From Thermoplasmata archaeon (GTDB lineage: Archaea > Thermoplasmatota > Poseidoniia > Poseidoniales > Thalassarchaeaceae): a stretch of 56,042 nucleotides of DNA. Shown here piece by piece: positions 12,190-27,017 of this stretch. The notes under the pieces were generated by a model. The model was not told where the DNA came from. It worked only from the letters and a program-made list of their open reading frames with translations, and searched no databases. Numbering within the stretch: position 1 is the stretch's first letter; each line of letters begins with the position of its first letter. The translations under genes and the position numbers were made by a program. The stretch is taken from contig PBXQ01000054.1 in the NCBI GenBank assembly GCA_002727675.1, positions 1 through 56,042 of the forward strand, in the 5' to 3' direction.

Positions 12190-13413
12190 ATGAGTGAATA
12201 TTGTGGCCCGAATTTACTTTCCGATTATTATTCCATTCTTGAAGAAAAGAGAACCGAATTAGAAAATTGGTTTGCTTTAGAGAGGGAGAAAAGAAAGATG
12301 CCGTTTTATGCATCAGTAGATATTAGGGATGCTGGTTGGAAGGTCGCAGCAGTTGATGCGAATGCCTATCCTGCTGGTTTCAATAATATTGGTGAATCAG
12401 AGAGAAAATTTCTTTCCGAGCAGTTGCATAAATGGTTAAGAAGCAATCATCCAAATTTGAAATGGTTGCATATTTGGCCTGAAAGTCACACTAGAAACAA
12501 AGGATATGTTGAGAATCTTATCGTGTTAAGAGATTTATTAATTTGTGAAGGTTATAGAGTAACAGTAGGGTCTGTTGAATTACAAGGTTTATCTACGATT
12601 GAAGGACTTTCAGGAGTAATTGATTTATCGGTTACTAAAGCAGAAGGTTGCTTAGTTGTTGATGGTAATACACCTGATTTATTGATATTAAACAATGATT
12701 TAAGCAATGGTGCTATTGATGGGGTCGGAAATATTCCTATTGCCCCACCACAAGAGATGGGTTGGTTTCAAAGAAGAAAATCAAATCATTTTAGGCATGC
12801 ACAACCATTTATCGATAAAGCGGCTGAAATTATTGGTATAGATCCATGGTTATTGGGTACTCATTGGTTTGTTAGCAAAGATAAATGTTTAGAAAAAGAA
12901 ACATGCAGAATAGAACTTGCTGCACAAGTTGATGATTTTCTCAAATTTTTGCAGAAAAAATATGATGAATATGGAATTGAAGGTAAGCCAGTATTGTTTG
13001 TAAAAAATGATTCAGGTACATATGGATTGGGTATTATTGAAATTGATAGTGGGGAACAATTACTAAATTTATCTAATCGTAAGGTGAATAAATTAACCTA
13101 TGGCAAAGGTGGTAATGAGGCTATAGATTTTTTACTTCAAGAAGGGGTCCCGACATCTTTAAGATTAGGTAATTCTGTTGTTGAGCCATGTTTTTATGGT
13201 GTTGGTGGAAAACATACTGCGGCCTTTTACAGAGTCAATCACAAGAAAGGAGTGATGACTAATTTGAACACACCTTCTACTGAATTTATGGATTATTCAC
13301 AAATTTCCAATCATCCAGAGGGTTCTTTGATTGTTAATTCGGCTGATAATTGGCACGCTTTAGTGTCTGAAATTGCGATGTTAGGGATGGCTTCGGAATT
13401 AGATGAATTATGA
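12190..13413 (+). CDS. gshA: Glutamate--cysteine ligase, ATP-grasp-like GshA family (PF08886 type)
   Basis: PFYASVDIRDAGWKVAAVDANAYPAGFNN, PESHTRN, LNNDLS, GWFQRRKSNHF, KNDSGTYGLG, QEGVPT, FYRVN. Confidence 0.85.
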   Translation: MSEYCGPNLLSDYYSILEEKRTELENWFALEREKRKMPFYASVDIRDAGWKVAAVDANAYPAGFNNIGESERKFLSEQLHKWLRSNHPNLKWLHIWPESHTRNKGYVENLIVLRDLLICEGYRVTVGSVELQGLSTIEGLSGVIDLSVTKAEGCLVVDGNTPDLLILNNDLSNGAIDGVGNIPIAPPQEMGWFQRRKSNHFRHAQPFIDKAAEIIGIDPWLLGTHWFVSKDKCLEKETCRIELAAQVDDFLKFLQKKYDEYGIEGKPVLFVKNDSGTYGLGIIEIDSGEQLLNLSNRKVNKLTYGKGGNEAIDFLLQEGVPTSLRLGNSVVEPCFYGVGGKHTAAFYRVNHKKGVMTNLNTPSTEFMDYSQISNHPEGSLIVNSADNWHALVSEIAMLGMASELDEL

Positions 13414-13689
13414 TTCCTCATCTCCATCTTCTGTTTTTTCCATCCCAACTATTTCGTAATTAGAGGGGAATAATGCTACCAGAATTCCTGCTATCATAGC
13501 AGCTAGACCCCAATAAAATCGTGATTGAACAATCATCATTTCTAGTGCGATAACAACGAGGATTAATCCTCCAAGGTTAGAAATCCAAACTAAGGTTTTG
13601 AATGTAGAAAGTGATACGCCTTTCTGATGCTGTGATCTGTATGGTCCAAATTCTGCACCAAATCTAACCGGTTCTTTTTCATCAGCCAT
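13408..13689 (-). CDS. Small 2-TM membrane protein, last gene of the Rieske/cytb operon
   Basis: Two hydrophobic helices; GGTGA RBS; directly follows the ferredoxin gene. Confidence 0.7.
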   Translation of the reverse strand: MADEKEPVRFGAEFGPYRSQHQKGVSLSTFKTLVWISNLGGLILVVIALEMMIVQSRFYWGLAAMIAGILVALFPSNYEIVGMEKTEDGDEES

Positions 13690-13693
13690 ATTT

Positions 13694-14026
13694 TCACCTA
13701 TCAATCATTTTGATGGCATTGGTCGGGCATGCTAGGACACATAATCTACACCCTGTGCATTCATCTCTAATTATTAGGGCTTTTTTATTTACTTCAATTT
13801 CTATTCCTGGTGTTCTCAAAGGTTCATCAATTAACTCAATTGCATTATCATCACATACAAGTAAACATTGATCACAACCTATACACTGATCTTTAATTAC
13901 GAAAGCAACAAATTCTTCTCCTTCTTTAATATCATTTGAGTGAATTTCTAGGGCTTTTTCCATACTTTCTTTTATTCTGGCAGCCTCTATTTCTCGGCGT
14001 CTTTTTAGCTCATCAAGCCCAGTCAT
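13694..14026 (-). CDS. 2x[4Fe-4S] ferredoxin
   Basis: CIGCDQCLLVC and CTGCRLCVLACP. Confidence 0.9.
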   Translation of the reverse strand: MTGLDELKRRREIEAARIKESMEKALEIHSNDIKEGEEFVAFVIKDQCIGCDQCLLVCDDNAIELIDEPLRTPGIEIEVNKKALIIRDECTGCRLCVLACPTNAIKMIDR

Positions 14027-14065
14027 CTAACCAATCCTTCAGGTTCCCGATATCAAATGCTCTAT

Positions 14066-16969
14066 TCAAACAATTGCTTCATCATTGATATTATTTTGAA
14101 CAATTTCAGTAGAGGGTGCCTTTACTGCGTTTTTCTCATCAACTTGCTTGGCTAAGAATGAAACGACATCCATTATTTCAAAGTCGTAACTAGGGTCGCC
14201 CTCAAATTTTAAGCATTCAAAATGAGTTACACACTTGGGGCAAGATGTTAACATAATTTCAGCACCTGTTTCTTTTACTTCTTCGAACCTTTGTACTCTA
14301 AGGGTACGACTGTCTTCATTACAAGACATCATGCTAGAAACACCACAACACAATGCATCTTCATGATGGTGTTCCATCTCAACCATGCTGATACCATTGA
14401 CATTTTGAATTAGGTTTCTGGGTTCTTCATAGATGTTCATTTGCCTACCTAATCTACATGGGTCATGGAACGTAACTTTCTTGGGGCAACTAGATGTTAA
14501 TTCAACATCGAAACCTTTCTCTGCAAGGAATTCCGTAGTATGCATTACTTTAATTCCATCCAATTCATAATCCATAGCAAAAGTCTTGAAACATTCAGCA
14601 CAACTACTTACGAGTGTATCAATCCCACTATCTTGTAATTTGTTTTCATTATATTGTTTTAATTTGTCAAAGACATCTCCCATGCCCTGCCATTTTTGAT
14701 CGTGCCCACAACATTTCAAGAAGTCCCTCCCTAGGTATGAAACATCAACCCCCATTTCCTCAAATAGAGTAAAAGCTGCAGTGGTAGTTTCTCCTAAATT
14801 CATTTCACCCTTGTTTAAGTGGCTAAATATCATGTCTCGGTCAAAATAATCTACACAACCAGGGTAATATCCAATTTTAGAATCTAGAGGATATTCTTCA
14901 ACTGAAATGAATTCAGAATCAGAATCTTCTTCTGCTTCTGCCGCTAATACTGCTTGCAAAATAGTATGGGGTATATTTGCGGCAGGAGGTCCACCAACCA
15001 CGAGGTTCCTTCTAATATCAACGTATGAATCATAGTAAACTAATTGTGGACATGCGTTTGTACAGGCTCCACAAGTAAGACACGAGTACATCGGTACACC
15101 ATCGTCTTCGTTGTTCCAAGTGTTGTAAATTATGTTTAGTTTATCTCCGGCATTAAATAATCTTACAGGGCAAGCATCATCACAAAGGTCACAACCATAA
15201 CATTTGTTCATTTCATACTCATATCCACGTGCCATGCTGCGCAAGAGGACATAAATCATTGCTCCAAGTCCAAGTGGGGGAATAAATAATGCATAAGTTA
15301 ATTTTGCATCTAAACTTTTAGGATTTTGATGGTAGGTTGGATTTTCCATGGAATATTGCTCTAGGTTTGAATTGGAAATTCCGGCTAAAGCAAGTTCAGT
15401 ACCATTTGTCCTGTCTAATGCCATTCCAGTATTTGGATTTAGGAATAATGGTTGATAGACAGATACAGATGAGGTTGAATCAACTTGAACTGAAGAATTA
15501 GCAGAATCAAATGATGATTCCATTGTCATTGTTACTGTATATTGCCCTGGTGATATTACAAATTCTTTGGTAATACAAGTCAGTCCTTCTTCTAGGTCGC
15601 CATCTAATGTTGCGATAGTAGTGCCGCTTGTATCTAAGACATTTACATCGATGGAATGGCCACCAGCTTTTCTAACACTTGTCTTAAAGGTGCAGCCCAA
15701 ATCCATGGTCAATTGATTTTGGCCCAAGTCTTCAACACTAAGTGTATATGAATTTGAAATTGTGGAATCACCTGAATAACTAAGGATTTCAGTAAATCCA
15801 TTTACGCCACCAGTGACAACTCCTTCAATGGTTTGGGTTTGCATGTGTTTATTTTCATCAGCAAAATCAATCATCGTCATTTGTACTGGCTGGTAAATCC
15901 CCCAATTTTTCCAGTAAGATGCTGGGAGTAGACAGTAGTCACTTCTATCTGATGACTCTTCACCAACAAACTTAGAATCTTGCCAAAGTGAACTTCCAGA
16001 ACTTGCTCCGTATGAAAGACAGTTGCTTTCCATTAAATCCCAATCATGCCCCTCTTCAATTACTAGTAGGGTATCAACAGGCTGGTTTCTAAGTGTGGCT
16101 AATTCGTCAACATCATCCATTGCACCTAGCCCTCCTATGTCCCAAAACCCTCCATTATAAACTGGCCAAGACACAACCGAAATTAGGACGGCAATAATTA
16201 GTGAACCTATTGCAATATTTTTGCCTATTTTAGGGCTTGCTCTTGACCCAGATGATTTAATCATGTACCATTTAGCTATGAAGTAAATCATTATCCAAAT
16301 GAAAATACCAGTAAGGATCCACGGAATAGCATTGAAAACTTCGGCTATCCATGGTTCTCTTACTACGCAACTAAGGCCTGCATGAGAATTAAGTTGGCAG
16401 AAATCAGATCTATTTTTTCCATATAATAAAAGGAATATATTTATTGAATACACACTGATAAACCAGACGTGAGCCAAGTAAATTACTCCGGCTGTTGCAA
16501 ACCAAGGGTCTTCAACACCTCTCTTTTCTCTGCCACCTAGGAATGGCGGCAGTGCTAGTATTCCTACTGGGAAGCCAGTTAGGAAAGCCCCCCACCATCC
16601 AGCATTCCAAGAAATCACAGGGGTGCCGAAGAAATCTCCGATTATTTGTGGTAAAGGAATGTCAAATTGAGGTAAATATTCTCCCCAACGTAAATATCCA
16701 TACGAAAATAGAACATACCAATCAGGGAATACGAAACCAGCTTGTGCAAAAGGATCAGCTGCACTGTGTAAGGGTGGTGGAATCAACCATGCGTAAAATG
16801 CTAACACGGCGACCATTGAAGCAAATACAAGGCTGTCTCTAAGTACTTCATGAGGCCAAAGTGGATGTCCTTCAAACACTCTTTCTCTCTTTTGCTCAGC
16901 ATCTAACATTTTTTCCTTTTCGCGCATATATACATCTGCAATGCGTCCAAAATTATCTATTAAGCCCAT
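14066..16969 (-). CDS. Cytochrome b6 subunit IV-like protein fused to an extramembrane domain and an HdrD/GlpC-like (2x[4Fe-4S] + 2xCCG) module
   Basis: WPHEV..ADP..PDWY (PEWY-type Qo motif); CYGCDLCDDACP, CLTCGACTNACP; YYPGC..KCCG..SCAEC; FHDPCRLGR..LCCG..TSCPKC. Confidence 0.88.
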   Translation of the reverse strand: MGLIDNFGRIADVYMREKEKMLDAEQKRERVFEGHPLWPHEVLRDSLVFASMVAVLAFYAWLIPPPLHSAADPFAQAGFVFPDWYVLFSYGYLRWGEYLPQFDIPLPQIIGDFFGTPVISWNAGWWGAFLTGFPVGILALPPFLGGREKRGVEDPWFATAGVIYLAHVWFISVYSINIFLLLYGKNRSDFCQLNSHAGLSCVVREPWIAEVFNAIPWILTGIFIWIMIYFIAKWYMIKSSGSRASPKIGKNIAIGSLIIAVLISVVSWPVYNGGFWDIGGLGAMDDVDELATLRNQPVDTLLVIEEGHDWDLMESNCLSYGASSGSSLWQDSKFVGEESSDRSDYCLLPASYWKNWGIYQPVQMTMIDFADENKHMQTQTIEGVVTGGVNGFTEILSYSGDSTISNSYTLSVEDLGQNQLTMDLGCTFKTSVRKAGGHSIDVNVLDTSGTTIATLDGDLEEGLTCITKEFVISPGQYTVTMTMESSFDSANSSVQVDSTSSVSVYQPLFLNPNTGMALDRTNGTELALAGISNSNLEQYSMENPTYHQNPKSLDAKLTYALFIPPLGLGAMIYVLLRSMARGYEYEMNKCYGCDLCDDACPVRLFNAGDKLNIIYNTWNNEDDGVPMYSCLTCGACTNACPQLVYYDSYVDIRRNLVVGGPPAANIPHTILQAVLAAEAEEDSDSEFISVEEYPLDSKIGYYPGCVDYFDRDMIFSHLNKGEMNLGETTTAAFTLFEEMGVDVSYLGRDFLKCCGHDQKWQGMGDVFDKLKQYNENKLQDSGIDTLVSSCAECFKTFAMDYELDGIKVMHTTEFLAEKGFDVELTSSCPKKVTFHDPCRLGRQMNIYEEPRNLIQNVNGISMVEMEHHHEDALCCGVSSMMSCNEDSRTLRVQRFEEVKETGAEIMLTSCPKCVTHFECLKFEGDPSYDFEIMDVVSFLAKQVDEKNAVKAPSTEIVQNNINDEAIV

Positions 16970-16985
16970 ACTGAATCATCTCCTA

Positions 16986-17852
16986 TCAATGAGGCTCCGC
17001 GATGCCTTGTACCCAAACAATAAACAAATGTATGATTATTAAAGTGGTTACGATTACTGGTAATATGAATACGTGAAGGAAATACATTCGTGTTACTGTT
17101 GCTCCTGAAAGTGATGTACCGCCAAATAGCAATATTGCCATCCAATTACCAATTAATGGGGTTGATTTTGCCATTGCAATCCCAATTGTGGCAGCACCAA
17201 AGGCAAGAGCGTCCCATGGTAGCAAATATCCAGAGTATCCAAAAATAATTGTCAAAAGCATTAATCCTACTCCAATAAGCCAGTTTAATTCACGTGGGTT
17301 TCTGTAAGCGCCAGTGAAGTAAACTCTACACATGTGTAAGAAAACAGATGCGACCATGAAGTGGGTGGCCCAATGATGTATACTTCTGATAATATAGCCA
17401 AATGGGAGTTGAGTCATGATAAATTCCATGCTACCATAAGCGGGAGTGGGGTCTCCATCTCCACCGGGGACATAGTAAATACCTAGTACAGTGCCTGTGA
17501 TGATTAGAATAATGAATGCTAAGAATGAAATCCCTCCAAGGCAGTATAATGGGTACCAGTACCAAATAATTCTGAGTTTATATTTCTCTGCGTGTGTCAT
17601 AGGCATTTGTCTGTGGACTGAATGATATGCATCCCTACTCATTGCCCAGTAGTCTTGAATTCTGAAACGCGTGTCTAACCATGAGAATGTCCAAAGGAAT
17701 ATCTTTTCAGCCATTCCCATTTTACCAACAGATTCTACAGCCCGGAGGATTTCTTTGCGCGGAACATCATCATTTTCTTTTCTCAGAGTCAATGCGACAA
17801 TTACCGATACGATGATTATGAAGAACCAAAGGAACCAAAATTGTAGTAACAT
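16986..17852 (-). CDS. petB: Cytochrome b6-type (N-terminal cytochrome b) subunit
   Basis: YCLGGISF, RSIHHW..LHMCRVYFTGAYRNPRELNW, GYLLPWD, FLHVFILP..IH, QGIAEPH. Confidence 0.92.
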   Translation of the reverse strand: MLLQFWFLWFFIIIVSVIVALTLRKENDDVPRKEILRAVESVGKMGMAEKIFLWTFSWLDTRFRIQDYWAMSRDAYHSVHRQMPMTHAEKYKLRIIWYWYPLYCLGGISFLAFIILIITGTVLGIYYVPGGDGDPTPAYGSMEFIMTQLPFGYIIRSIHHWATHFMVASVFLHMCRVYFTGAYRNPRELNWLIGVGLMLLTIIFGYSGYLLPWDALAFGAATIGIAMAKSTPLIGNWMAILLFGGTSLSGATVTRMYFLHVFILPVIVTTLIIIHLFIVWVQGIAEPH

Positions 17853-17862
17853 ATCTATTCAC

Positions 17863-18741
17863 CTAATTACAAAAAGTATACCAATCGAGAATTTCAACAA
17901 CTCCCTCTGCTTCAAAGTCAATAGCTTCAATTACACCCGAAGCATTGACTTGGAAAGGGATTAATGGGATTCCTACAGGGGCAGGCCCACCAGTTCTTTT
18001 TATCCCGAAATAATTGAATGCCGCTCCTGTATTTTTGTTTATGTTTGTATTTTTCTCTATTACTGTAGGGTCAAACCTACTAGAATGACAAATACAGAAT
18101 AATTTGTTACCACCTGAGTCTAGCCCCCCAGGGATCCAATTATCGGCAGTGAAGTCATTAGGGACTAATTGCCAACCAGGAATGCAACAAAGGTGCGGGC
18201 ACCTTGACATGACGATAATCATGTTATCGTGAATTTTCAAAACAGACCATTTTGCCTCTTCTTCGATTTCCCCGCCATAACCAATTATGGCGCCTGTTTG
18301 ATCTTCGCCATCTGCAAATTGGAAACGGGGTTTTCCTGTAGATGTGGAAGTGTCTTTATTTTCATCATGTGGGACGTAAATTGCTGTTACTGGCATCCCA
18401 CCCCAAACACCTTGAGCACCTGACATACCAGTTGAACTAGTGGCGGCATCATCTACGAAGTCGCTCTTTTTCATCGATTCCAAATGTTTTGAACCATACC
18501 AAACATTGTCTTCTTGACCTTTGGGTACCCAATAACTGATTGAGTTACTACCTCCTGCATCATCCCTTGTCCCCATTAACAATGAAGCAAATCCTATTGA
18601 ACCAAAACTAGCCATGGTAATTAACCCTGCAGCAGAATTGAATGAGTAACGCATGAATTTTCTTCTGTCTAAATTGTAAGAACCTTGGGGTGTGGTATCA
18701 CTAATTATTGGCGACGGGCGAAGCCTAAATTCTCTTGCCAT
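17863..18741 (-). CDS. petC: Rieske [2Fe-2S] protein with Tat anchor
   Basis: DRRKFMR twin-arginine motif + TM; CPHLCC and CICHSSRFD boxes; GPAP. Confidence 0.9.
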   Translation of the reverse strand: MAREFRLRPSPIISDTTPQGSYNLDRRKFMRYSFNSAAGLITMASFGSIGFASLLMGTRDDAGGSNSISYWVPKGQEDNVWYGSKHLESMKKSDFVDDAATSSTGMSGAQGVWGGMPVTAIYVPHDENKDTSTSTGKPRFQFADGEDQTGAIIGYGGEIEEEAKWSVLKIHDNMIIVMSRCPHLCCIPGWQLVPNDFTADNWIPGGLDSGGNKLFCICHSSRFDPTVIEKNTNINKNTGAAFNYFGIKRTGGPAPVGIPLIPFQVNASGVIEAIDFEAEGVVEILDWYTFCN

Positions 18742-18745
18742 CTAA

Positions 18746-19195
18746 TTACACCTCGTATTTATGCCAACTATCTGGGTCCTTCGGGGGGATGAATTTCCTA
18801 CGTCTGTTCTTGACTATTACAATGTCAGGGGCAACCCATTTGAGATAAATAATACCCATGACAATGAGAGTCACCATTGTCATAGCTAAGTGGAATGAAA
18901 GTTGCTGTTGATCCCATCCATTATACAAGCCATAAGTCATAGAGCCAGCCCAGTATAGTGTCCAGCCAACACCCCACAAGAAAGTCAAAATTACCAATGC
19001 CGAGGTCCCATTCAGTGCCAAACTAGCACGAATAATTGTTCCTGGTTCTACTTTGTTGTAAACGCCATGGTCTATTGCTGATTGGTATGTTTCTTCGTCT
19101 AGAGTTACACCCTCAAGCGCAGCCCTAGCATCTTCTACACTCACATCGCCACTGGCGACCTGCCGTAACATCTTGGTGATGGTGTCCTGTTTCAA
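18746..19195 (-). CDS. 2-TM membrane protein with N-terminal SHOCT-like helix pair
   Basis: MLRQVASGDVSVEDARAALE followed by two TM helices; overlaps the upstream gene by 4 nt. Confidence 0.65.
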   Translation of the reverse strand: MKQDTITKMLRQVASGDVSVEDARAALEGVTLDEETYQSAIDHGVYNKVEPGTIIRASLALNGTSALVILTFLWGVGWTLYWAGSMTYGLYNGWDQQQLSFHLAMTMVTLIVMGIIYLKWVAPDIVIVKNRRRKFIPPKDPDSWHKYEV

Positions 19196-20016
19196 ATATG
19201 GTCACCTCTCTTCAAGTTTTTAATCCTCAGTCGTAGCAAGTTACTCCTTCCCTCGTAATGTCTACTAAATCCATACCTTAGGAAGAACCCACAGAAAATA
19301 ATTACTGAAATCACTGCTCCAAAACCGAGCAAACCAAGCCAATGTGCTCTGAAAGGTGCTCCCATGCTGTGTAAGTCGATGTGCCCACTATCTACTACTG
19401 GCGCAGCAATATTTCCATCACCAGCAAAAACCATGCGTGTATTTCCGTCGTCATTTCCTTCGGTGATTGAAAATGAGAGTCTATTGTATGAGTCGGGCGC
19501 AGTAGGTGCGCCATTCCCATCAACAGAATTTCCAGCCACCCAGAATTTCACATCACCAGTGCCGCTAGAAGGCGGGGTCCAAGTTACTAACCACATACGA
19601 TCTGTAACTTCAGCTCCTTCAGAGGTGTGGGTCATTGTTTGTGGGGAGCCATCATTATGGACTAAACTGCCATAGCCTTCTGCTGCTGAGAAGGATCCAC
19701 TAGATGCTCGCATTGAAAAACCACCTGTATTATGGCCGGGGTCAATTTCGGGTCCTCCAATTAGTTGGATAGTAAACGTATAGGTGCTATCTTCAGACCA
19801 CATGTATGGCAAGCCATCAACTAGCAATGTGACACTATCTGATGGTGCTACAAGATTATTTGTGTGGCAGGTACAACCATTTTTTGCGACATCGGTTTCG
19901 CCCGCTGCTTGGTCTCCTGTAATGCCGTCAGATTCCGCTATTGAGGTGCTCGCTAAAAGTAGCGCAGTAAGCAGAAGAATTAGCGGCATTTTCAAGTCAT
20001 TGATTTTGCCACCCAT
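19192..20016 (-). CDS. Secreted, C-terminally anchored Reeler / choice-of-anchor-V-like protein
   Basis: Signal peptide, GCTCH, GGFSM, THT, WLVTWTPPSSGTGDVKFWVAGNSVDGNG, C-terminal TM. Confidence 0.7.
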   Translation of the reverse strand: MGGKINDLKMPLILLLTALLLASTSIAESDGITGDQAAGETDVAKNGCTCHTNNLVAPSDSVTLLVDGLPYMWSEDSTYTFTIQLIGGPEIDPGHNTGGFSMRASSGSFSAAEGYGSLVHNDGSPQTMTHTSEGAEVTDRMWLVTWTPPSSGTGDVKFWVAGNSVDGNGAPTAPDSYNRLSFSITEGNDDGNTRMVFAGDGNIAAPVVDSGHIDLHSMGAPFRAHWLGLLGFGAVISVIIFCGFFLRYGFSRHYEGRSNLLRLRIKNLKRGDHI

Positions 20017-20540: not shown

Positions 20541-21458
20541 ATGTTGGGTGTTGTTGTGCACGATGGTAGTCTCTTAATCGCTGGTGTCGGTAGTCTAGGA
20601 TCTATTTGGGCCAAAAGAGCACATGAAAATTGTAGTGACTATTGTGATTTATTGCTAGTTGATTCTGATGAAGCCTCATTTGAAGATTCTAGGCACGCTC
20701 ATTGTGTTCCTTTGGGAGATTTATCTAGTGAAGGATGCGCCGCCCTCCCAGAATTAGCGGCCTCCCATTTCATGAAGGCTACAGCGATCATGGATAAAAT
20801 TCTGGAGCCAGTCGAATTATTGATTTTACTAACATCTCTAGGTGGTGGTGTTGGTTCAGGCTCAGCACCTTTACTTGCTTCACAAGCTAGGCGTAAAGGT
20901 GCGTTAGTAATTTCAATAGCTGGGATTCCGTTTGATGATCACCCGACTCGTCGAGAAATTGCATCTTCAGCCTTCAATAGATTGGATGAATCTTCTGATG
21001 TTTGTGCCAAATTATCTCTTGACCGCCTTGCATGGCAAGCACGGAGTAGAGGCGTGGACTGGAGAAAACACCCTTCATGGATAGAGGAATTAGTCCAAGG
21101 ATTGGTTCTTACTTTAGGGCAAGTGGGTATTATCAACTTGGATTTAATGGATTTGCGTTCAGTTGTTTCTAGAAGTGGGGCGGCTACAATGGTTGTTGCT
21201 GAAGGGGATCCGAATGATCCTGAATCTATTTTCTTGCAAGCACTTTCAGCTCCGTTGGCATCTTTAGATGTTAGTGGGTCTACTGGTTGCCTATTGCAAT
21301 TAGAAGGTGGGCGGCAAATGTCAATTTATCAGATGGAGAAGGTTGCAGATGCATTTACAAGAGGTTTAGATGAAAATGCACAAGTAATTATTGGCGCTAG
21401 GCATTCCGATGGTTTGGATGGTAAAATAAGAGTTGTAGCAGTAGTAAGTGGGCTTTAA
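20541..21458 (+). CDS. Divergent FtsZ/tubulin-family protein
   Basis: LGGGVGSGSAP (tubulin signature variant), IPF, INLDLMDLRSV (T7 loop), VIIGA..IRVVAVVSGL C-terminal domain. Confidence 0.8.
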   Translation: MLGVVVHDGSLLIAGVGSLGSIWAKRAHENCSDYCDLLLVDSDEASFEDSRHAHCVPLGDLSSEGCAALPELAASHFMKATAIMDKILEPVELLILLTSLGGGVGSGSAPLLASQARRKGALVISIAGIPFDDHPTRREIASSAFNRLDESSDVCAKLSLDRLAWQARSRGVDWRKHPSWIEELVQGLVLTLGQVGIINLDLMDLRSVVSRSGAATMVVAEGDPNDPESIFLQALSAPLASLDVSGSTGCLLQLEGGRQMSIYQMEKVADAFTRGLDENAQVIIGARHSDGLDGKIRVVAVVSGL

Positions 21459-23112: not shown

Positions 23113-25695
23113 TTAATCATGTTTAGCTGCCCATGCATCCTCTACTGAAAGAGCTCTATTTTTCAATGGGATTATTTTTCTATATATTTCATATGGTGAC
23201 TTAATCTCACCTTCAACAGTTAGAAGCCTAACTAAAGGAATGCCAAAGTGTTCTTCATTTTGAATTAATAATGGTTCGATAATATCCCAATCCTTATCTG
23301 ATAATTCAACGAATTCACCCCCATTTAATTGTGATGATGATAAAATTTCATGTGGGTCTCTGACATATATTGCTCCTCCACTTGAAAGACTGAACAGGTT
23401 TCCACCAGGGTATGGTGTTTCTAGTTCTGTAATTGAACCAGATTGGTCAAATTTAATCCCGTTGATAATAACAAATCCACCCCCTTCTAGTGGATCTCCA
23501 GCCATGAATGACTCTGCCAAATAATCTAAAGCAGTCCCATTAATTACTAGTTTTGGACCTCCTACAGAGTTAATCATTGGCCTACCTGCGGCGTTTCCTT
23601 GGACAAACAAACGCCCACCTTTTGCTCCATATCCATAGCACTGTCCCACATCTCCATGAACCACCAAGGTACCTTTCTTGTAAATTTGAGCAACTTGATC
23701 CTGGGCATTTCCGTGCATATGGATTGTCATCCCATCACTCCCACTTCCAAGATAATCTCCAACACTACCAAATACATCTATTCTAACATCTTCAGTTTCC
23801 ATTCCAAAACCATTGCCAATAAACCGGTGTCCTCGGCAGTGAGTGACACAGAAATTTTTCCATCCTGATTGGTAAAGTGCTACTAATTCACGGGCTAGAG
23901 ATTCAGTTCCTTCTATGGGATATGGTCTTGCATCTACAACAATAGATTGCGTGAGGTTTTCTGGTTCTGGAATATGTCCGGGAGATTTTTGTCCAATGAA
24001 GTATTCGCATGGTTTTGTGCTAGAATGATTTAATATTTCCATTATTGAATCCTCTACTAAATCAAGCCAACGGCTTGTTCTAAGTTTACCAGTGTCATAT
24101 TTTCTATTTAGCAATAAACAAAGTAGTTCAACAGCTTGTTTACGTGATTTTTCACTTGCAAATGAACTAATTTCAGATAGTAGTGCTCTTGCTGAAGGCC
24201 AATCAAACTCGGAAATATTTGATGACAATTCGGGGAATATTGTTGTGGGCGACCATTCTTCTGGCCATTGAAAACCTGAAGTCAATGCTGAATTTTCTAT
24301 TTGGTAATTACCTGGGGGGTGGGTGTTAATCAAATCTCCAAATTTGTTTTTCATTACTAATTCATGTGTCCCATCTTGATTTGGATTTACGTCAAAAATG
24401 AATGACCCTCCGTCAGTGTATGATCCTCCTCTAGCATTCCAATATTCATCACATCGTCGCCAGAAACGATTATCTTCAGAAGACAAACTTTCCAATACTG
24501 CATCAATAACTTGCTTTTCTGAACCACAGAAAGCAATAGCCACCTCTCCTCTTTGATATGAGAATACTTGTGGGCGTAGCATACTTGTGTCAGTAATTCC
24601 AATTAATTGATGAGATTTGCCATTTGCTTTTGCAATTATGAAGAACCATGGTCCATCGGGAGAGCCGTGAATATGGGTTTTTTGAATGGCTTCGTAAACT
24701 TCTTGTTTTTCATCGGGGAGCATGATAAAATCTAATTCACCTGTAGGTGCTAGACTTTCTATTACATATTCGATGGGATATCCATAAACTCGTGAATGTA
24801 AATCGAATCCTAATGCTGCAACTTCTGTGTCAGTGAAGAATAATGGCTCCATTCCTCTTTGTCCTAGGTAGTCTTTGACTGACACATAATTGGAGAAGTC
24901 GCCGTTATGAACCAATGCTACATCAATACCCTGCCCAAATGGGTGTGCGCCACCAGGGTGTGTGACTCTTCCTCTAGTAGGGTATCTGTGATGGCCAATC
25001 CATACATGTGCAGTCACATCATCTAGTCTATAGAATCTAATCACGTCTTCTGCATAGCCAACAATTTTGAGAATTATCATATTTTGTCCATGGCTTAAAA
25101 CAAACGCATCAGCACGTTGATCTTTAGCGTAGAATTCAACATTTAATCTGTGAGTGTTCTGGAAAAGCATTTCATCCCACATTGCTTTTTTATTACTGAA
25201 GTCTTCTTCCTTGAGATTCCCTTCTGACAAGAATTTTTCTACAGCAGAAGGTTTTGGGCGTATGAAATAACAAACAACCTCTGGTGGTTTGACTTCTAAG
25301 TTTGGCAAATCTTCCCAATTTTTCATAGTGGAAACTTCATGAATGTGATCAACTTCAAATGAATTATGAATAAATTGTTTTTCAACGTCTTTTCTTACAG
25401 ATTCATCAGAGTAAGCTATTGCGTACAAATAGTCGTTTTTGAGAATCTCTTCACTAACTCCAAATTGTTCGTGGTTTAAGCCCACCATGGCAACACCTCC
25501 GCCCTTCCCATTACCTCTATTCCTCATTTGTTCAAGGGAGTTGAACAGATGTTTTCCAGCAACTGGTATTTCACAAGCTAAACCTACGACTCCGCAACCA
25601 CCCTCAGCAGCATCATCTTCATCGAATTCTATTTTAGGTAGGCTATTGTTCATAATTCTTCTAGAATTTAACAAAGCATCATGGTTTGACATCAA
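23113..25695 (-). CDS. Glutamate synthase-like subunit: Ntn glutamine amidotransferase + GXGXG domain fusion
   Basis: EGGCGVVG nucleophile, RNRGNGKGGG, HHRYPT, AHPF, HNGDF, TDTEV; C-terminal GNAQD/GDVG/GNAAGR GXGXG repeats. Confidence 0.85.
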   Translation of the reverse strand: MMSNHDALLNSRRIMNNSLPKIEFDEDDAAEGGCGVVGLACEIPVAGKHLFNSLEQMRNRGNGKGGGVAMVGLNHEQFGVSEEILKNDYLYAIAYSDESVRKDVEKQFIHNSFEVDHIHEVSTMKNWEDLPNLEVKPPEVVCYFIRPKPSAVEKFLSEGNLKEEDFSNKKAMWDEMLFQNTHRLNVEFYAKDQRADAFVLSHGQNMIILKIVGYAEDVIRFYRLDDVTAHVWIGHHRYPTRGRVTHPGGAHPFGQGIDVALVHNGDFSNYVSVKDYLGQRGMEPLFFTDTEVAALGFDLHSRVYGYPIEYVIESLAPTGELDFIMLPDEKQEVYEAIQKTHIHGSPDGPWFFIIAKANGKSHQLIGITDTSMLRPQVFSYQRGEVAIAFCGSEKQVIDAVLESLSSEDNRFWRRCDEYWNARGGSYTDGGSFIFDVNPNQDGTHELVMKNKFGDLINTHPPGNYQIENSALTSGFQWPEEWSPTTIFPELSSNISEFDWPSARALLSEISSFASEKSRKQAVELLCLLLNRKYDTGKLRTSRWLDLVEDSIMEILNHSSTKPCEYFIGQKSPGHIPEPENLTQSIVVDARPYPIEGTESLARELVALYQSGWKNFCVTHCRGHRFIGNGFGMETEDVRIDVFGSVGDYLGSGSDGMTIHMHGNAQDQVAQIYKKGTLVVHGDVGQCYGYGAKGGRLFVQGNAAGRPMINSVGGPKLVINGTALDYLAESFMAGDPLEGGGFVIINGIKFDQSGSITELETPYPGGNLFSLSSGGAIYVRDPHEILSSSQLNGGEFVELSDKDWDIIEPLLIQNEEHFGIPLVRLLTVEGEIKSPYEIYRKIIPLKNRALSVEDAWAAKHD

Positions 25696-27017
25696 TTGCC
25701 GCCCCCTAAATATTTCAATAAATCAGTTCTGCCTACTAATTTTTTAACATCGTCAAGTCCCAGTTTGCTTAATATATCTCTAATTCTCCATTGTATTGCG
25801 GTATAGTAATTATCCAGTCTTTTGATTGCCCATTCTTGTTGGATCCATTCTTGCAGTTCTATGTCGGTGGTAGTTAATCCCCAAGGGCACCCTCTGCCTG
25901 ATGGCCCACCCTCACAGTTGGAGCATCTAGTGCAACCCATTGCAACTAAATCACTAGTTCCTAATACTACCCCGTCGGCACCAAGTGCAATTGCTTTGGC
26001 AATATCGTCTCCAGTCCTAATCCCGCCACTTGCAATCAAAGTGACTTTGTCTCTAATTCCTTCTTTAATTAAGAATTTATGCACCTTTGGTATGGCTAAT
26101 TCTATTGGCATTGCAATATTTTTCTTTGCTATTTCTGGAGCGGCTCCTGTTCCACCAAATCCACCGTCAAGGTGGATAATATGTGCTCCAGCATAGTATG
26201 ATCCTACAGCAACCATATCAACATCGTGAGGTGTTGAGACTTTAACTGAAATTAATGCATTTGGATTTACAGTTTGTATCCAATCAATATGCTTGGAGTG
26301 GTCCTCAACTGAATATGTTGAGTGGAATGGGAATGGGCTAAATAAACTAACAAAGGGGACGCTTCCTCTCATTTTAGCTACCTCTTCCCCGGCTTTAGAT
26401 GCTAGCAAGTGTCCTCCCAATCCTGGTTTTGCCCCCTGTGCATACTTGAATTCCACAATTGGGGCTGCTTGGATTGACCTTTCTTCTACTCCAAAATAGC
26501 CCGTGGCTACTTGAGTTATTACGTGATCTTTACATTGGTATAATTCCTCGGGATATCCTCCTTCTCCCGTTGACATGTAAGTATTCCATTTCTTTGCATT
26601 CATAGCACGGGCCATCATGACGTTTACAGAAACAGAACCATAAGACATACCACCTCCATAAATTGGAATTGGGGGGTTTAGTTTTGCTCTTTCATCTCCT
26701 CTGCGGTTTAGTGGAATACCAGTTTCAATTTCGTCAGAATTTTTAATCCAATCTTTTTCAGAAATATATTTGAATTCTAATTTGTCAAATCCACCGTTAC
26801 TATCTCCGGTTTTATAATTTAGATTTTCAGGTACTTTTCCAGTAGCTGCCATATGCCAAGTTGATAGAATTAGTTCATCTGTCCACCTTGCGTCACCTAG
26901 GGCAGGGGGGATTTCAAATTCACCAAATGCTATGGCATCCATACCATCATGCATTAGATGTGTTGTTTTGTTAATCAAATCAATACTGGGTTTCTTTGGT
27001 TCTTTACTCATGGCCAT
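25692..27017 (-). CDS. Glutamate synthase FMN-binding subunit (GltB2-like) with [3Fe-4S] motif
   Basis: GMSYGS, STGEGG, QVATGYFGV, KYAQGAKPGLGGHL, GGTGAAP, ASGGIR, CTRCSNC..CPWG. Confidence 0.9.
   Translation of the reverse strand: MAMSKEPKKPSIDLINKTTHLMHDGMDAIAFGEFEIPPALGDARWTDELILSTWHMAATGKVPENLNYKTGDSNGGFDKLEFKYISEKDWIKNSDEIETGIPLNRRGDERAKLNPPIPIYGGGMSYGSVSVNVMMARAMNAKKWNTYMSTGEGGYPEELYQCKDHVITQVATGYFGVEERSIQAAPIVEFKYAQGAKPGLGGHLLASKAGEEVAKMRGSVPFVSLFSPFPFHSTYSVEDHSKHIDWIQTVNPNALISVKVSTPHDVDMVAVGSYYAGAHIIHLDGGFGGTGAAPEIAKKNIAMPIELAIPKVHKFLIKEGIRDKVTLIASGGIRTGDDIAKAIALGADGVVLGTSDLVAMGCTRCSNCEGGPSGRGCPWGLTTTDIELQEWIQQEWAIKRLDNYYTAIQWRIRDILSKLGLDDVKKLVGRTDLLKYLGGGN

Follow-up and report, generated by a model that had tools for sequence, protein, structure and literature searches.

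The seven genes g1 to g7 at positions 13408-20016 of the minus strand of the window, by which we mean the whole stretch of 56,042 nucleotides (nt) analysed here (contig PBXQ01000054.1 of assembly GCA_002727675.1, a Thermoplasmata archaeon of the order Poseidoniales), encode a Rieske/cytochrome b complex whose subunit IV is fused to an iron-sulfur (Fe-S) module with two [4Fe-4S] cluster motifs and two CCG domains. This fusion is a genuine and old feature, and the operon is the sole complex III of Poseidoniales. As judged from sequences and structural models, the complex probably trades electrons directly with carriers inside the cell via this built-in module. The reading we prefer is that the module acts as a ferredoxin-linked wire to the n-side hemes and the Qi site, and we give it about even chances of being correct. 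The layout of a tight seven-gene minus-strand operon described in an earlier note on this DNA was confirmed: all seven open reading frames (ORFs) lie at the expected coordinates, and the intergenic gaps, counted from g1, which is transcribed first, to g7, are -4, 4, 10, 16, 39 and -11 nt, with a maximum of 39 nt.

The fusion protein g5 (14066-16969, minus strand, as are all operon coordinates below; 967 amino acids (aa)) begins with the subunit IV part, which comprises three transmembrane (TM) helices and the Qo motif PDWY at residues 82-85 (residues 1-187; 16409-16969). It is followed by two additional TM helices seen both in hydropathy and in the AlphaFold2 (AF2) model (residues 207-274; 16148-16351), by an acidic, beta-rich, fast-evolving insert that is predicted to be extracellular (residues 275-551; 15317-16147), and by a final TM helix that is predicted to bring the chain back to the cytoplasm (residues 552-578; 15236-15316). 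The C-terminal module has two cubane [4Fe-4S] motifs CxxCxxCxxxCP (residues 586-642; 15044-15214; Pfam Fer4_8/9/10), a first CCG domain with C705, C753, C754, C790 and C793 (residues ~700-795; 14585-14872), which is the modelled docking surface of the ferredoxin g6, and a second CCG domain with C838, C874, C875, C910 and C913, which is the best Pfam CCG stretch (residues 832-917; 14219-14476). This order, two CxxCxxCxxxCP motifs and then two five-cysteine CCG domains, is that of HdrD or of HdrB plus HdrC. The earlier note had described a subunit IV joined through extra TM helices and a soluble domain of ~280 aa to the Fe-S and CCG motifs. All these parts are present, but the soluble domain, an insert of ~286 aa, is predicted to be extracellular and not a cytoplasmic linker.

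Conservation of the fusion protein

The possibility raised in the earlier note that the fusion is a misassembly absent from related genomes was not borne out and can be ruled out. The fusion protein was matched in 41/41 related genomes; most of these matches were single open frames of ~930-990 aa, and the shorter ones were largely cut by contig ends, with an internal stop in a few. When 301 genomes were sampled evenly across the phylum Thermoplasmatota, all 63 Poseidoniales genomes had a match (21/21 in family f1 and 42/42 in family f3). Both halves of g5 were co-linear in 104/104 loci, 99 of which were scored as one ORF; in the other five the high-scoring segment pair had run through the terminal stop. 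The exact g5 protein belongs to a cluster of nine, and hundreds of relatives with at least 62% identity lie on many contigs, one of them 1.5 Mb long.

For gene order, we used the best 80 of 297 confirmed stretches in a named genome collection; all are of the Poseidoniales type, so that counts over these loci have no bearing on other phyla. The records of the best 80 come from Thalassarchaeaceae and Poseidoniaceae, and the genus-level relatives of the window are labelled Thalassarchaeaceae. The synteny survey proposed in the earlier note showed that g1-g5 are co-linear and on one strand in all 67 loci with enough upstream sequence, and it revealed short and split forms in other families (see below). 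Among the Poseidoniales loci, cytochrome b has the highest identity to the window proteins (77-96%) and the Fe-S/CCG module the second highest (73-84%), whereas the g5 insert is the least conserved part, with 25-42% identity between families. One locus, L047 (PAQG01000017.1), is titled Acidimicrobiaceae bacterium and has all seven genes, with 63% identity in g5; the label is probably a binning or labelling error.

The Rieske/cytochrome b core

The cytochrome b, g4 (16986-17852; 288 aa, ~32 kDa), belongs to the b6 type and has one additional TM segment at its N-terminus. It matched Pfam Cytochrome_B at 1.3e-42, and its closest PDB chains were cytochromes b6 (1.7e-43 to 2.3e-42), with bc1 cytochromes b far behind; the alignment with b6 is gapless from helix B through helix D. 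The histidines H159/H173 and H260/H275, present in 84/84 homologues, align with b6 positions 86/100 and 187/202, which we take to be heme ligands. Thus, g4 has two bis-His heme-b sites with the b6 spacing in helix D, and it has the heme-cn cysteine as well: L102-Y-C104 aligns with F33-Y-C35 of 1vf5_A (Y-C104-L-G-G over Y-C35-L-G-G), where Cys35 is the attachment residue of heme cn. C104 was found in 83/84 homologues, the remaining one having an ambiguous base. By this alignment, g4 very probably carries one covalently bound heme (cn) via Cys104.

The second half of the split cytochrome b is the N-terminal part of g5, a subunit IV separate from g4 and with a PEWY-type Qo motif. Its first 94 residues gave a weak match to the b6f subunit IV (6.9e-4) with PDWY placed over PEWY, and PDWY is present in 87/87 complete g5 homologues. 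Of the Pfam domains that the earlier note had expected in a scan of the operon, Fer4 and CCG were matched in g5, but no Cytochrom_B_C match was obtained for its N-terminus.

The Rieske subunit g3 (17863-18741; 292 aa) is a divergent Tat-exported [2Fe-2S] protein. As a single sequence it had no Pfam match and no PDB match, and its match to TIGR01416 (5e-8) was below the cut-off. A profile of 17 homologues, however, matched bc1 Rieske subunits (1.2e-5), and the two cluster boxes were in register. The boxes C181/H183/C186 and C216/C218/H219 and the Tat arginines R26-R27 are conserved in 71/71 homologues, i.e. g3 has both the CxH...CxxH boxes and the export signal expected for a b6f-type complex.

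A motif scan found no CxxCH in any of the seven operon proteins, and no c-type cytochrome subunit (c1, f or di-heme c) belongs to the complex; according to the accessible text of Diamond 2022 (PMC9038741), this is usual in archaeal complexes. The absence of cytochrome c claimed in the earlier note therefore holds for the operon, but it is an organism-wide trait and not specific to the complex (see below), and the cytochrome b very probably retains a covalent heme. In summary, the complex resembles cytochrome b6f in its split cytochrome b, the b6 histidine spacing, the cysteine aligned with the heme-cn ligand, the PEWY-type subunit IV and the Tat-Rieske protein. It differs in having no cytochrome f or c, in a subunit IV enlarged by three TM helices, the insert and the module of two [4Fe-4S] motifs and two CCG domains, and in additional operon products: a Reeler-fold protein, a DUF7318-like protein, a ferredoxin and a small TM protein.

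In loci from other Thermoplasmatota families, cytochrome b has extracellular extensions at its N-terminus: a plastocyanin-type cupredoxin plus an Ig domain in L105 (5138-7096, minus strand), and one to four Big_5 Ig-like domains in L106 (10086-11948, minus strand) and L107 (6003-8618, plus strand).

Topology of g5 and its Fe-S/CCG module

Hydropathy placed six TM segments in g5 (residues 46-64, 127-145, 158-180, 214-232, 252-270 and 557-575). Lys and Arg are abundant in the short loops of one side, in agreement with the positive-inside rule, whereas the 286-residue loop has 12 Lys plus Arg against 40 Asp plus Glu. The AF2 model, built on 32 sequences (mean predicted local distance difference test score (pLDDT) 71.3, predicted TM-score (pTM) 0.46), has helices at 39-62, 123-139, 155-187, 207-243, 246-274 and 552-578, matching the hydropathy; its beta-rich domain at ~377-504 was modelled with block pLDDT values mainly in the 80s. 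Since the N-terminus of subunit IV lies, by homology, on the n side as in b6f, the insert is predicted to be outside the cell, and residues 579-967 with the Fe-S/CCG module are predicted to be in the cytoplasm. Fe-S domains without an export signal are expected in the cytoplasm, which agrees with this placement. Topology thus argues against the module lying outside the cell, an outcome that the earlier note had considered damaging to its proposal. For the insert, only weak matches to jelly-roll or GOLD-type folds were found. The TM pair at residues 207-274 is restricted to the long form of Poseidoniales and is missing from the short forms in the alignment.

Only ~11 residues separate the last helix from the first cluster cysteine, C590, and the juxtamembrane motif G582-Y-E-x-x-x-N588-x-C590-Y is among the near-invariant columns of the alignment. 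Pfam matched a Fer4 dicluster at residues 586-642 and CCG in two stretches (8.9e-23). Conservation of the cysteines was counted in 87 complete ORFs (78 from Poseidoniales and nine short forms). The eight cubane cysteines C590, C593, C596, C600, C630, C633, C636 and C640 are present in 87/87 and those of the second CCG domain in 86-87/87; altogether, 16 of the 18 cluster positions are Cys in 87/87 or 86/87, an ambiguous base accounting for the exception. The lowest value is that of C754, a Cys in 82/87 that is replaced by Val in five short forms; the other cysteines of the first CCG domain are at 87/87. Hence, the CCG cysteines, whose conservation the earlier note had left to be checked, are indeed conserved.

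This conservation bears on the alternative that the module has no electron-transfer role and is a redox or Fe-S sensor, an assembly or stability domain, or a relic. The low confidence with which the cubane domain was modelled would be compatible with it. We nevertheless regard it as very unlikely, as the 18 cysteines are kept across the order and beyond, the module ranks second in conservation among the parts of the operon (73-84% identity), and a dedicated ferredoxin is kept beside it.

The ferredoxin g6 and the membrane protein g7

The last two genes encode a 110-aa ferredoxin with two [4Fe-4S] motifs and an N-terminal helix (g6; 13694-14026) and a 98-aa small membrane protein, hydrophobic by hydropathy (g7; 13408-13704). 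Both were present in 71/80 loci, with g7 directly after g6 in 64 of these 71. In 37/71 loci they share the strand of the operon, at a median distance of 94 nt from the g5 end; in the other 34/71 they are inverted, at a median of 33 nt. The inverted arrangement is that of Poseidoniaceae. No g6 was found in 8/80 loci, five of which have less than 700 nt of downstream sequence, and in L020 g6 is present with no g7 match before the sequence ends. The eight cysteines of g6 are kept in 71/71. Strongly kept motifs are also seen in g7, e.g. F79-P-S-N-Y-E-I-x-G-M; g7 is possibly the membrane anchor of g6 or a small subunit.

The ferredoxin matched Pfam Fer4_21 at 6e-14 and the rnfB model TIGR01944 at 2e-12. 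With 47.1 bits against a cut-off of 68.7 it is not a true RnfB. The accessible text of Tully 2019 reports RnfB without RnfACDEG in Marine Group II (MGII) archaea, as the Poseidoniales are also called, and g6 is probably this 'RnfB'.

In a complex model of g5 residues 576-967 with g6, the interface score ipSAE was 0.82/0.83/0.82, compared with 0.00, 0.00 and 0.01 for the controls. At least 89% of contacts were shared between runs, and the partner pLDDT was at least 82. In the calibration of the tool, this mark was reached by 58/80 solved complexes and 2/110 mismatched pairs, a calibration that is only roughly valid here because we used our own alignments. The modelled interface comprises the N-terminal helix of g6 and its residues 44-53 and 101-104, around C48, C51 and C100, and on the side of g5 residues 694-749, 883-893 and 919-927, i.e. 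the two CCG domains. The modelling thus supports binding of g6 to the CCG domains of g5. That the complex has its own ferredoxin, as the earlier note had proposed, is supported by both the gene neighbourhood and a docking result that beat its controls.

Kinship of the module and possible functions

By sequence, the closest solved chain to the g5 module is 9ojn_A, the EtfD of M. smegmatis (1.6e-23), and Foldseek ranked 9ojn first (2e-14), then LutA, then the HdrB chains 8rwn_B and 5odc_B. The best NCBIfam match of g5 was the thiol:fumarate reductase TfrB (3.9e-31; 108.2 bits against a cut-off of 385). No HdrD model is among the 25 best families listed of the 42 matched, and all those listed are below their cut-offs. 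Therefore, g5 was rejected as a true HdrD, TfrB, GlpC or DsrK, its scores being below the curated cut-offs among the matches listed.

In cytochrome-containing methanogens, HdrD is attached to a b-type cytochrome in HdrDE and talks to a quinone-like carrier in the membrane. The g5 module has the HdrD-type set of two [4Fe-4S] motifs and two CCG domains with all cysteines, but its membrane partner is subunit IV/cytochrome b6 and not HdrE. HdrDE, which couples disulfide chemistry to methanophenazine, is the model for an alternative function as an HdrD-type catalytic site: the CCG domains would reduce a disulfide, either a small molecule (e.g. bis-gamma-glutamylcystine) or a protein disulfide, with electrons from quinol, or would oxidise thiols and pass the electrons to the quinone pool, and g6 would be accessory. 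The complete five-cysteine sets of both CCG domains, as in HdrB-type folds, would fit this function, as would TfrB as the best NCBIfam match (3.9e-31) and a gene for the glutamate-cysteine ligase GshA (4.7e-96) that converges on the operon and is nearby in 47/80 loci. The TfrB match, however, reached 108 bits where 385 are required, and the adjacency of GshA is part of a wider conserved gene order and is not seen in many of the loci that have full flanks. Furthermore, docking placed g6 over the CCG surface, which suits electron transfer, and EMO and EtfD, as far as their accessible descriptions go, show that clusters of this type can act purely as relays. A pathway for a cognate thiol cofactor was not identified, genes of CoM/CoB biosynthesis not having been searched for; MGII are described in the accessible text of Tully 2019 as aerobic heterotrophs, not methanogens. 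We therefore consider a catalytic site unlikely.

The precedent for a relay is provided by the ETF:(methyl)menaquinone oxidoreductases EtfD and EMO, ETF being the electron-transferring flavoprotein. As reported in the accessible part of the description of the EtfD structure (9ojn), two CCG clusters, two cubane clusters, heme b and menaquinone follow one another in steps of 4-9 Å, and its authors describe a continuous electron wire from ETF to the quinone pool; the accessible text of the EMO preprint (S. aciditrophicus) likewise has the non-cubane clusters transferring electrons and not serving as catalytic sites, and it reports production of the CCG domain in E. coli. Like these enzymes, the complex studied here has a cytoplasmic module of two CCG and two cubane domains on a heme-b membrane domain. 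In EtfD and EMO, as far as described there, the membrane part is a NarI/HdrE-like heme-b domain of the same polypeptide, whereas here it is subunit IV of a Rieske/cytochrome b complex; and their donor is ETF, whereas g5 is linked to a dedicated ferredoxin.

If the module of g5 docked ETF in the manner of EtfD and EMO, electrons from beta-oxidation and amino acid oxidation would enter at Qi. EtfD is indeed the closest solved relative of the module, genes for ETF alpha and beta were found in 5/5 genomes examined (see below), and the Fe-S signature of ETF-QO was not found in 3/5, including two single-contig genomes; the other two had weak matches in frames of ~108 aa. These genomes, though, also encode another CCG protein, whose copy in the genome of the window is a separate 667-aa protein (contig C56, L120:2281-4284, plus strand) with an N-terminal hydrophobic domain of ~5 TM segments, Fer4 and two CCG domains, which matched M. 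smegmatis EtfD at 4.8e-106, compared with 1.6e-23 for the g5 module. By this comparison, the 667-aa protein is likely the EtfD orthologue and the ETF:quinone oxidoreductase of Poseidoniales, and the g5 module is not an EtfD orthologue. Most relatives likewise gave a second match to the CCG part of the query, weaker than the first. Because a dedicated EtfD orthologue already serves the ETF route, ETF was dropped as the main donor of g5 and is a minor rival, which we consider highly unlikely; sequence and docking together make the operon-linked g6 a better candidate for the cytoplasmic partner.

The module outside the order Poseidoniales

In a sister order of the same class (family f4), the two halves of g5 match adjoining separate frames in 8/8 genomes. 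In the operon of L109 from this order, a g1-like gene with the GCxCH motif, a g2-like gene, a Tat-Rieske gene and a cytochrome b gene (FYCLGG) are followed by an ORF for subunit IV with one TM segment and two [4Fe-4S] motifs, then by a separate ORF with two CCG domains, and then by a polyferredoxin. By its motifs, this arrangement has HdrC-like and HdrB-like parts in place of an HdrD-like fusion. Short single-frame fusions of 543-789 aa without the insert were found among the 50%-identity cluster representatives. They occur in three other families of the phylum (f23, 5/5; f25, 4/4; f31, 1/1), each directly after cytochrome b.

The next gene differs among these families. In f23, it encodes a FAD/pyridine-nucleotide-disulfide oxidoreductase with Fe-S motifs that matched the NCBIfam models HdrA2/HdrA at 7e-47 and 6.5e-53; in f25, a Fer4 plus MvhD/FlpD protein that matched the C-terminal part of HdrA2 at 1.7e-42 and 7e-47; and in f31, a polyferredoxin. 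As the scores are far below the equivalog cut-offs, we call the f23 and f25 proteins HdrA-like and nothing more. The split in f4, the HdrA-like and MvhD genes and the polyferredoxin neighbours show recurrent pairing of the module with electron carriers of the cytoplasm, and the comparison of these sequences identifies it as a movable unit. The split, short and long forms with their HdrA-like partners would offer a comparative series for the recruitment of Hdr-type modules to membrane anchors.

Similar neighbourhoods have been noticed before: the accessible text of Diamond 2022 (PMC9038741) reports hdrD-like and rnfB-like genes beside complex III in Angelarchaeales of the same phylum and proposes from these neighbours that ferredoxin enters at complex III. 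That remark, as far as the accessible text goes, is one sentence on one genome and does not mention a subunit IV fusion, topology, conservation or Poseidoniales.

Respiratory context

The respiratory inventory was compared in five genomes, that of the window (71% complete) and four relatives that are 91-98% complete, two of them single-contig. Each of the 5/5 genomes had one Cytochrome_B match, the operon copy, and one COX1 match. No class-I cytochrome c (PF00034) was found in any of the five (0/5), and plastocyanin-family blue-copper proteins were found in 5/5. From this we conclude that the operon is the only complex III and that it does an ordinary complex III job; any model of MGII respiration must therefore include it. 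The sole COX1 match in the genome of the window (G000:C78:10398-11768, minus strand) has one in-frame TGA, unlike those of the four relatives, possibly through a sequencing error or because the gene is broken.

The five genomes all had POR-type 2-oxoacid:ferredoxin oxidoreductases (5/5), and NuoF was found in none of them (0/5). By this gene content, reduced ferredoxin is made and must be re-oxidised, for which complex III is one candidate route and the complex I without NuoF another.

Proposed path of electrons

The core would run an ordinary Q cycle, in which quinol is oxidised at Qo (PDWY). The first electron would pass to the Rieske centre and outward, probably via blue-copper proteins and the one heme-copper oxidase, and the second would pass through the two b hemes to the n side. 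The fused module, ~11 residues from the membrane, would be the wire, leading from the CCG clusters through the two cubane clusters to heme cn/bH, in the arrangement described for the solved EtfD and EMO. Held at the membrane with g7 and docked on the CCG domains, g6 would feed low-potential electrons, e.g. from 2-oxoacid:ferredoxin oxidoreductases, into Qi, and the complex would also be a ferredoxin:quinone oxidoreductase. A wire to the n-side hemes is the most economical reading because of the EtfD/EMO precedent and because the module is tethered so close to the membrane. The wiring of a quinol-oxidising complex to a cytoplasmic redox module, as the earlier note had put it, is thus supported as a reading; that the clusters assemble, that electrons pass between module and hemes and in which direction they flow, we infer.

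Several points weigh against the ferredoxin-linked wire. Both CCG domains of g5 keep their five-cysteine sets as in catalytic HdrB, whereas EtfD has CTG in the first; this would be compatible with a catalytic thiol/disulfide site. Confidence in the AF2 model is low over the cubane-cluster domain (block pLDDT 40-57 at residues 601-680; pTM 0.46), and the good docking score may reflect the model's memory of HdrB-HdrC-type complexes. Because of their opposite orientation in 34/71 loci, g6 and g7 are not always co-transcribed with the operon, and three loci (L079, L085 and L088), each with ~6.9 kb downstream of g5, had no g6 or g7 match; there the ferredoxin pair may be elsewhere in the genome or absent. 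A second entry point for ferredoxin is not required either, since the NuoF-less complex I is itself a commonly proposed acceptor. Finally, the wire architecture fits either direction of flow.

Electrons might therefore also leave through the module: an electron from quinol would pass via the b hemes into the module and reduce g6 or, in other lineages, another low-potential acceptor via HdrA-like partners, as a Qo-based bifurcation that would supply an aerobe with low-potential reductant. The architecture is the same as for entry and silent on direction, and the HdrA-like genes downstream in f23 and f25 associate the module with flavoproteins of the bifurcation type. An electron crossing from the p side to the n side would, however, have to do so against the membrane potential. 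The step is steeply uphill, since the potentials of cubane ferredoxin clusters are usually far below those of b hemes, and these heterotrophs already make reduced ferredoxin with POR-type enzymes (5/5). In anammox bacteria, the n-side subunits added to Rieske/cytochrome b cores reportedly are a NAD(P)-binding flavoprotein and multiheme proteins; a CCG module is not known to be among them. The accessible text of PMC12954380 proposes that these anammox complexes generate NAD(P)H, which would connect them to low-potential redox chemistry in the cytoplasm and be a parallel to electron exit. Taken together, we think that electrons are unlikely to leave by this route.

Returning to the entry of electrons from ferredoxin, it is possible, although we would lean against it, that Poseidoniales and some other Thermoplasmatota run a hard-wired ferredoxin:quinone reductase in complex III, with an Fe-S chain to heme cn/Qi. 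If true, this would be a natural, genetically fixed counterpart of the ferredoxin-to-b6f route debated for cyclic electron flow in chloroplasts, and heme cn would be an n-side electron port; with HdrA-like flavoproteins, the same port could couple the Q cycle to flavin-based bifurcation. More generally, a permanent cytoplasmic Fe-S extension would add an electron entry or exit to a well-studied enzyme, which bears on the role of heme cn.

Relation to earlier reports

The accessible text of Tully 2019 counts MGII among the most abundant surface-ocean archaea and notes that no member has been cultured; most have cytochrome b and a Rieske protein without a canonical bc1 complex. The same text lists 'MGII specific (complex III)' proteins and an RnfB unaccompanied by other Rnf subunits. 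The operon would explain both this 'MGII specific complex III' and the 'orphan RnfB' of MGII genomics. Term searches in the main text of Rinke 2018 and in Dibrova 2017 found no mention of the module. For the fusion of subunit IV with an HdrD-type module, its topology, the split/short/long series and the HdrA-like partners, we found no description in our full-text searches of the literature; supplements may hold drawings of the locus, and this negative result does not extend to the figures and supplements of three papers that may show the locus or its clade, namely Tully 2019, Diamond 2022 (Fig. 4) and the EMO preprint (Supplementary Table 2; Figs 13-14, with a phylogeny of CCG-domain proteins). 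The earlier note had called the system uncharacterised. This stands for the fusion, but the complex III locus itself was noted in passing in the accessible texts of Tully 2019 and Diamond 2022. What the sequences add to these passing mentions is a fusion that appears to join a Rieske/cytochrome b complex to a wire of the Hdr/EtfD type.

The proteins g1 and g2 and neighbouring genes

The identities proposed in the earlier note for g1 (Reeler-like), g2 (two TM segments), g3 (Tat-Rieske) and g4 (split cytochrome b) were supported by domain or profile matches and, for the TM segments of g2, by hydropathy. The first gene, g1 (19192-20016), encodes a 274-aa protein in which a beta-sandwich of the Reeler fold lies between a signal peptide and a TM anchor at the C-terminus. 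It matched the NCBIfam model choice-of-anchor V (choice_anch_V) at 4.2e-21. In its AF2 model (mean pLDDT 73.8) the top Foldseek hits were F-spondin reeler domains (E 8e-5; target-normalised TM-score 0.57), and archaeal 'putative Reelin domain' clusters were matched in an atlas search. The motif G-C48-x-C50-H51 has both cysteines in 66/67 homologues and H51 in 67/67. A g1-like gene also exists in the sister order, and the GCxCH motif (residues 47-51; 19864-19878) is kept across both orders of the class at ~26% overall identity; His225, at the start of the TM anchor, is likewise invariant. This pattern suggests a metal or cofactor site that is neither CxxCH nor a known copper-site pattern, and g1 is possibly an extracellular partner of the Rieske centre. 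The second gene, g2 (18746-19195), encodes a 149-aa protein with two hydrophobic, i.e. TM, segments by hydropathy and many invariant Trp residues. It had a weak match to DUF7318 (1.4e-6, barely above the cut-off), is co-linear with the operon in 67/67 loci and is presumed to be a small subunit.

On the plus strand, the gene for the glutamate-cysteine ligase GshA (12190-13413; PF08886, 4.7e-96) is convergent with the operon and shares 6 nt with the end of g7. A GshA homologue was found downstream of the operon in 47/80 related loci, within a wider kept gene order of MeaB, AsnB, GshA, the operon, a TPR protein and an FtsZ-like protein. The adjacency was rejected as a functional link and is treated as conserved gene order, not as evidence of function: many loci with a downstream flank of ~7 kb lack GshA, and the gene travels with AsnB, MeaB and further neighbours.

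Upstream of g1, a 179-nt stretch is AT-rich. Further upstream, at 20541-21458 on the plus strand, lies the gene for a 305-aa divergent protein of the tubulin/FtsZ family (Tubulin 6.5e-13, FtsZ_C 5e-14), which is preceded by a small TPR protein gene; both neighbours are kept in 67/80 loci. At 23113-27017 on the minus strand, two adjoining ORFs of 860 aa (GXGXG domain and a weak amidotransferase match) and 441 aa (Glu_synthase core) together resemble a split archaeal glutamate synthase, and they are followed by a 502-aa ORF without a Pfam match.

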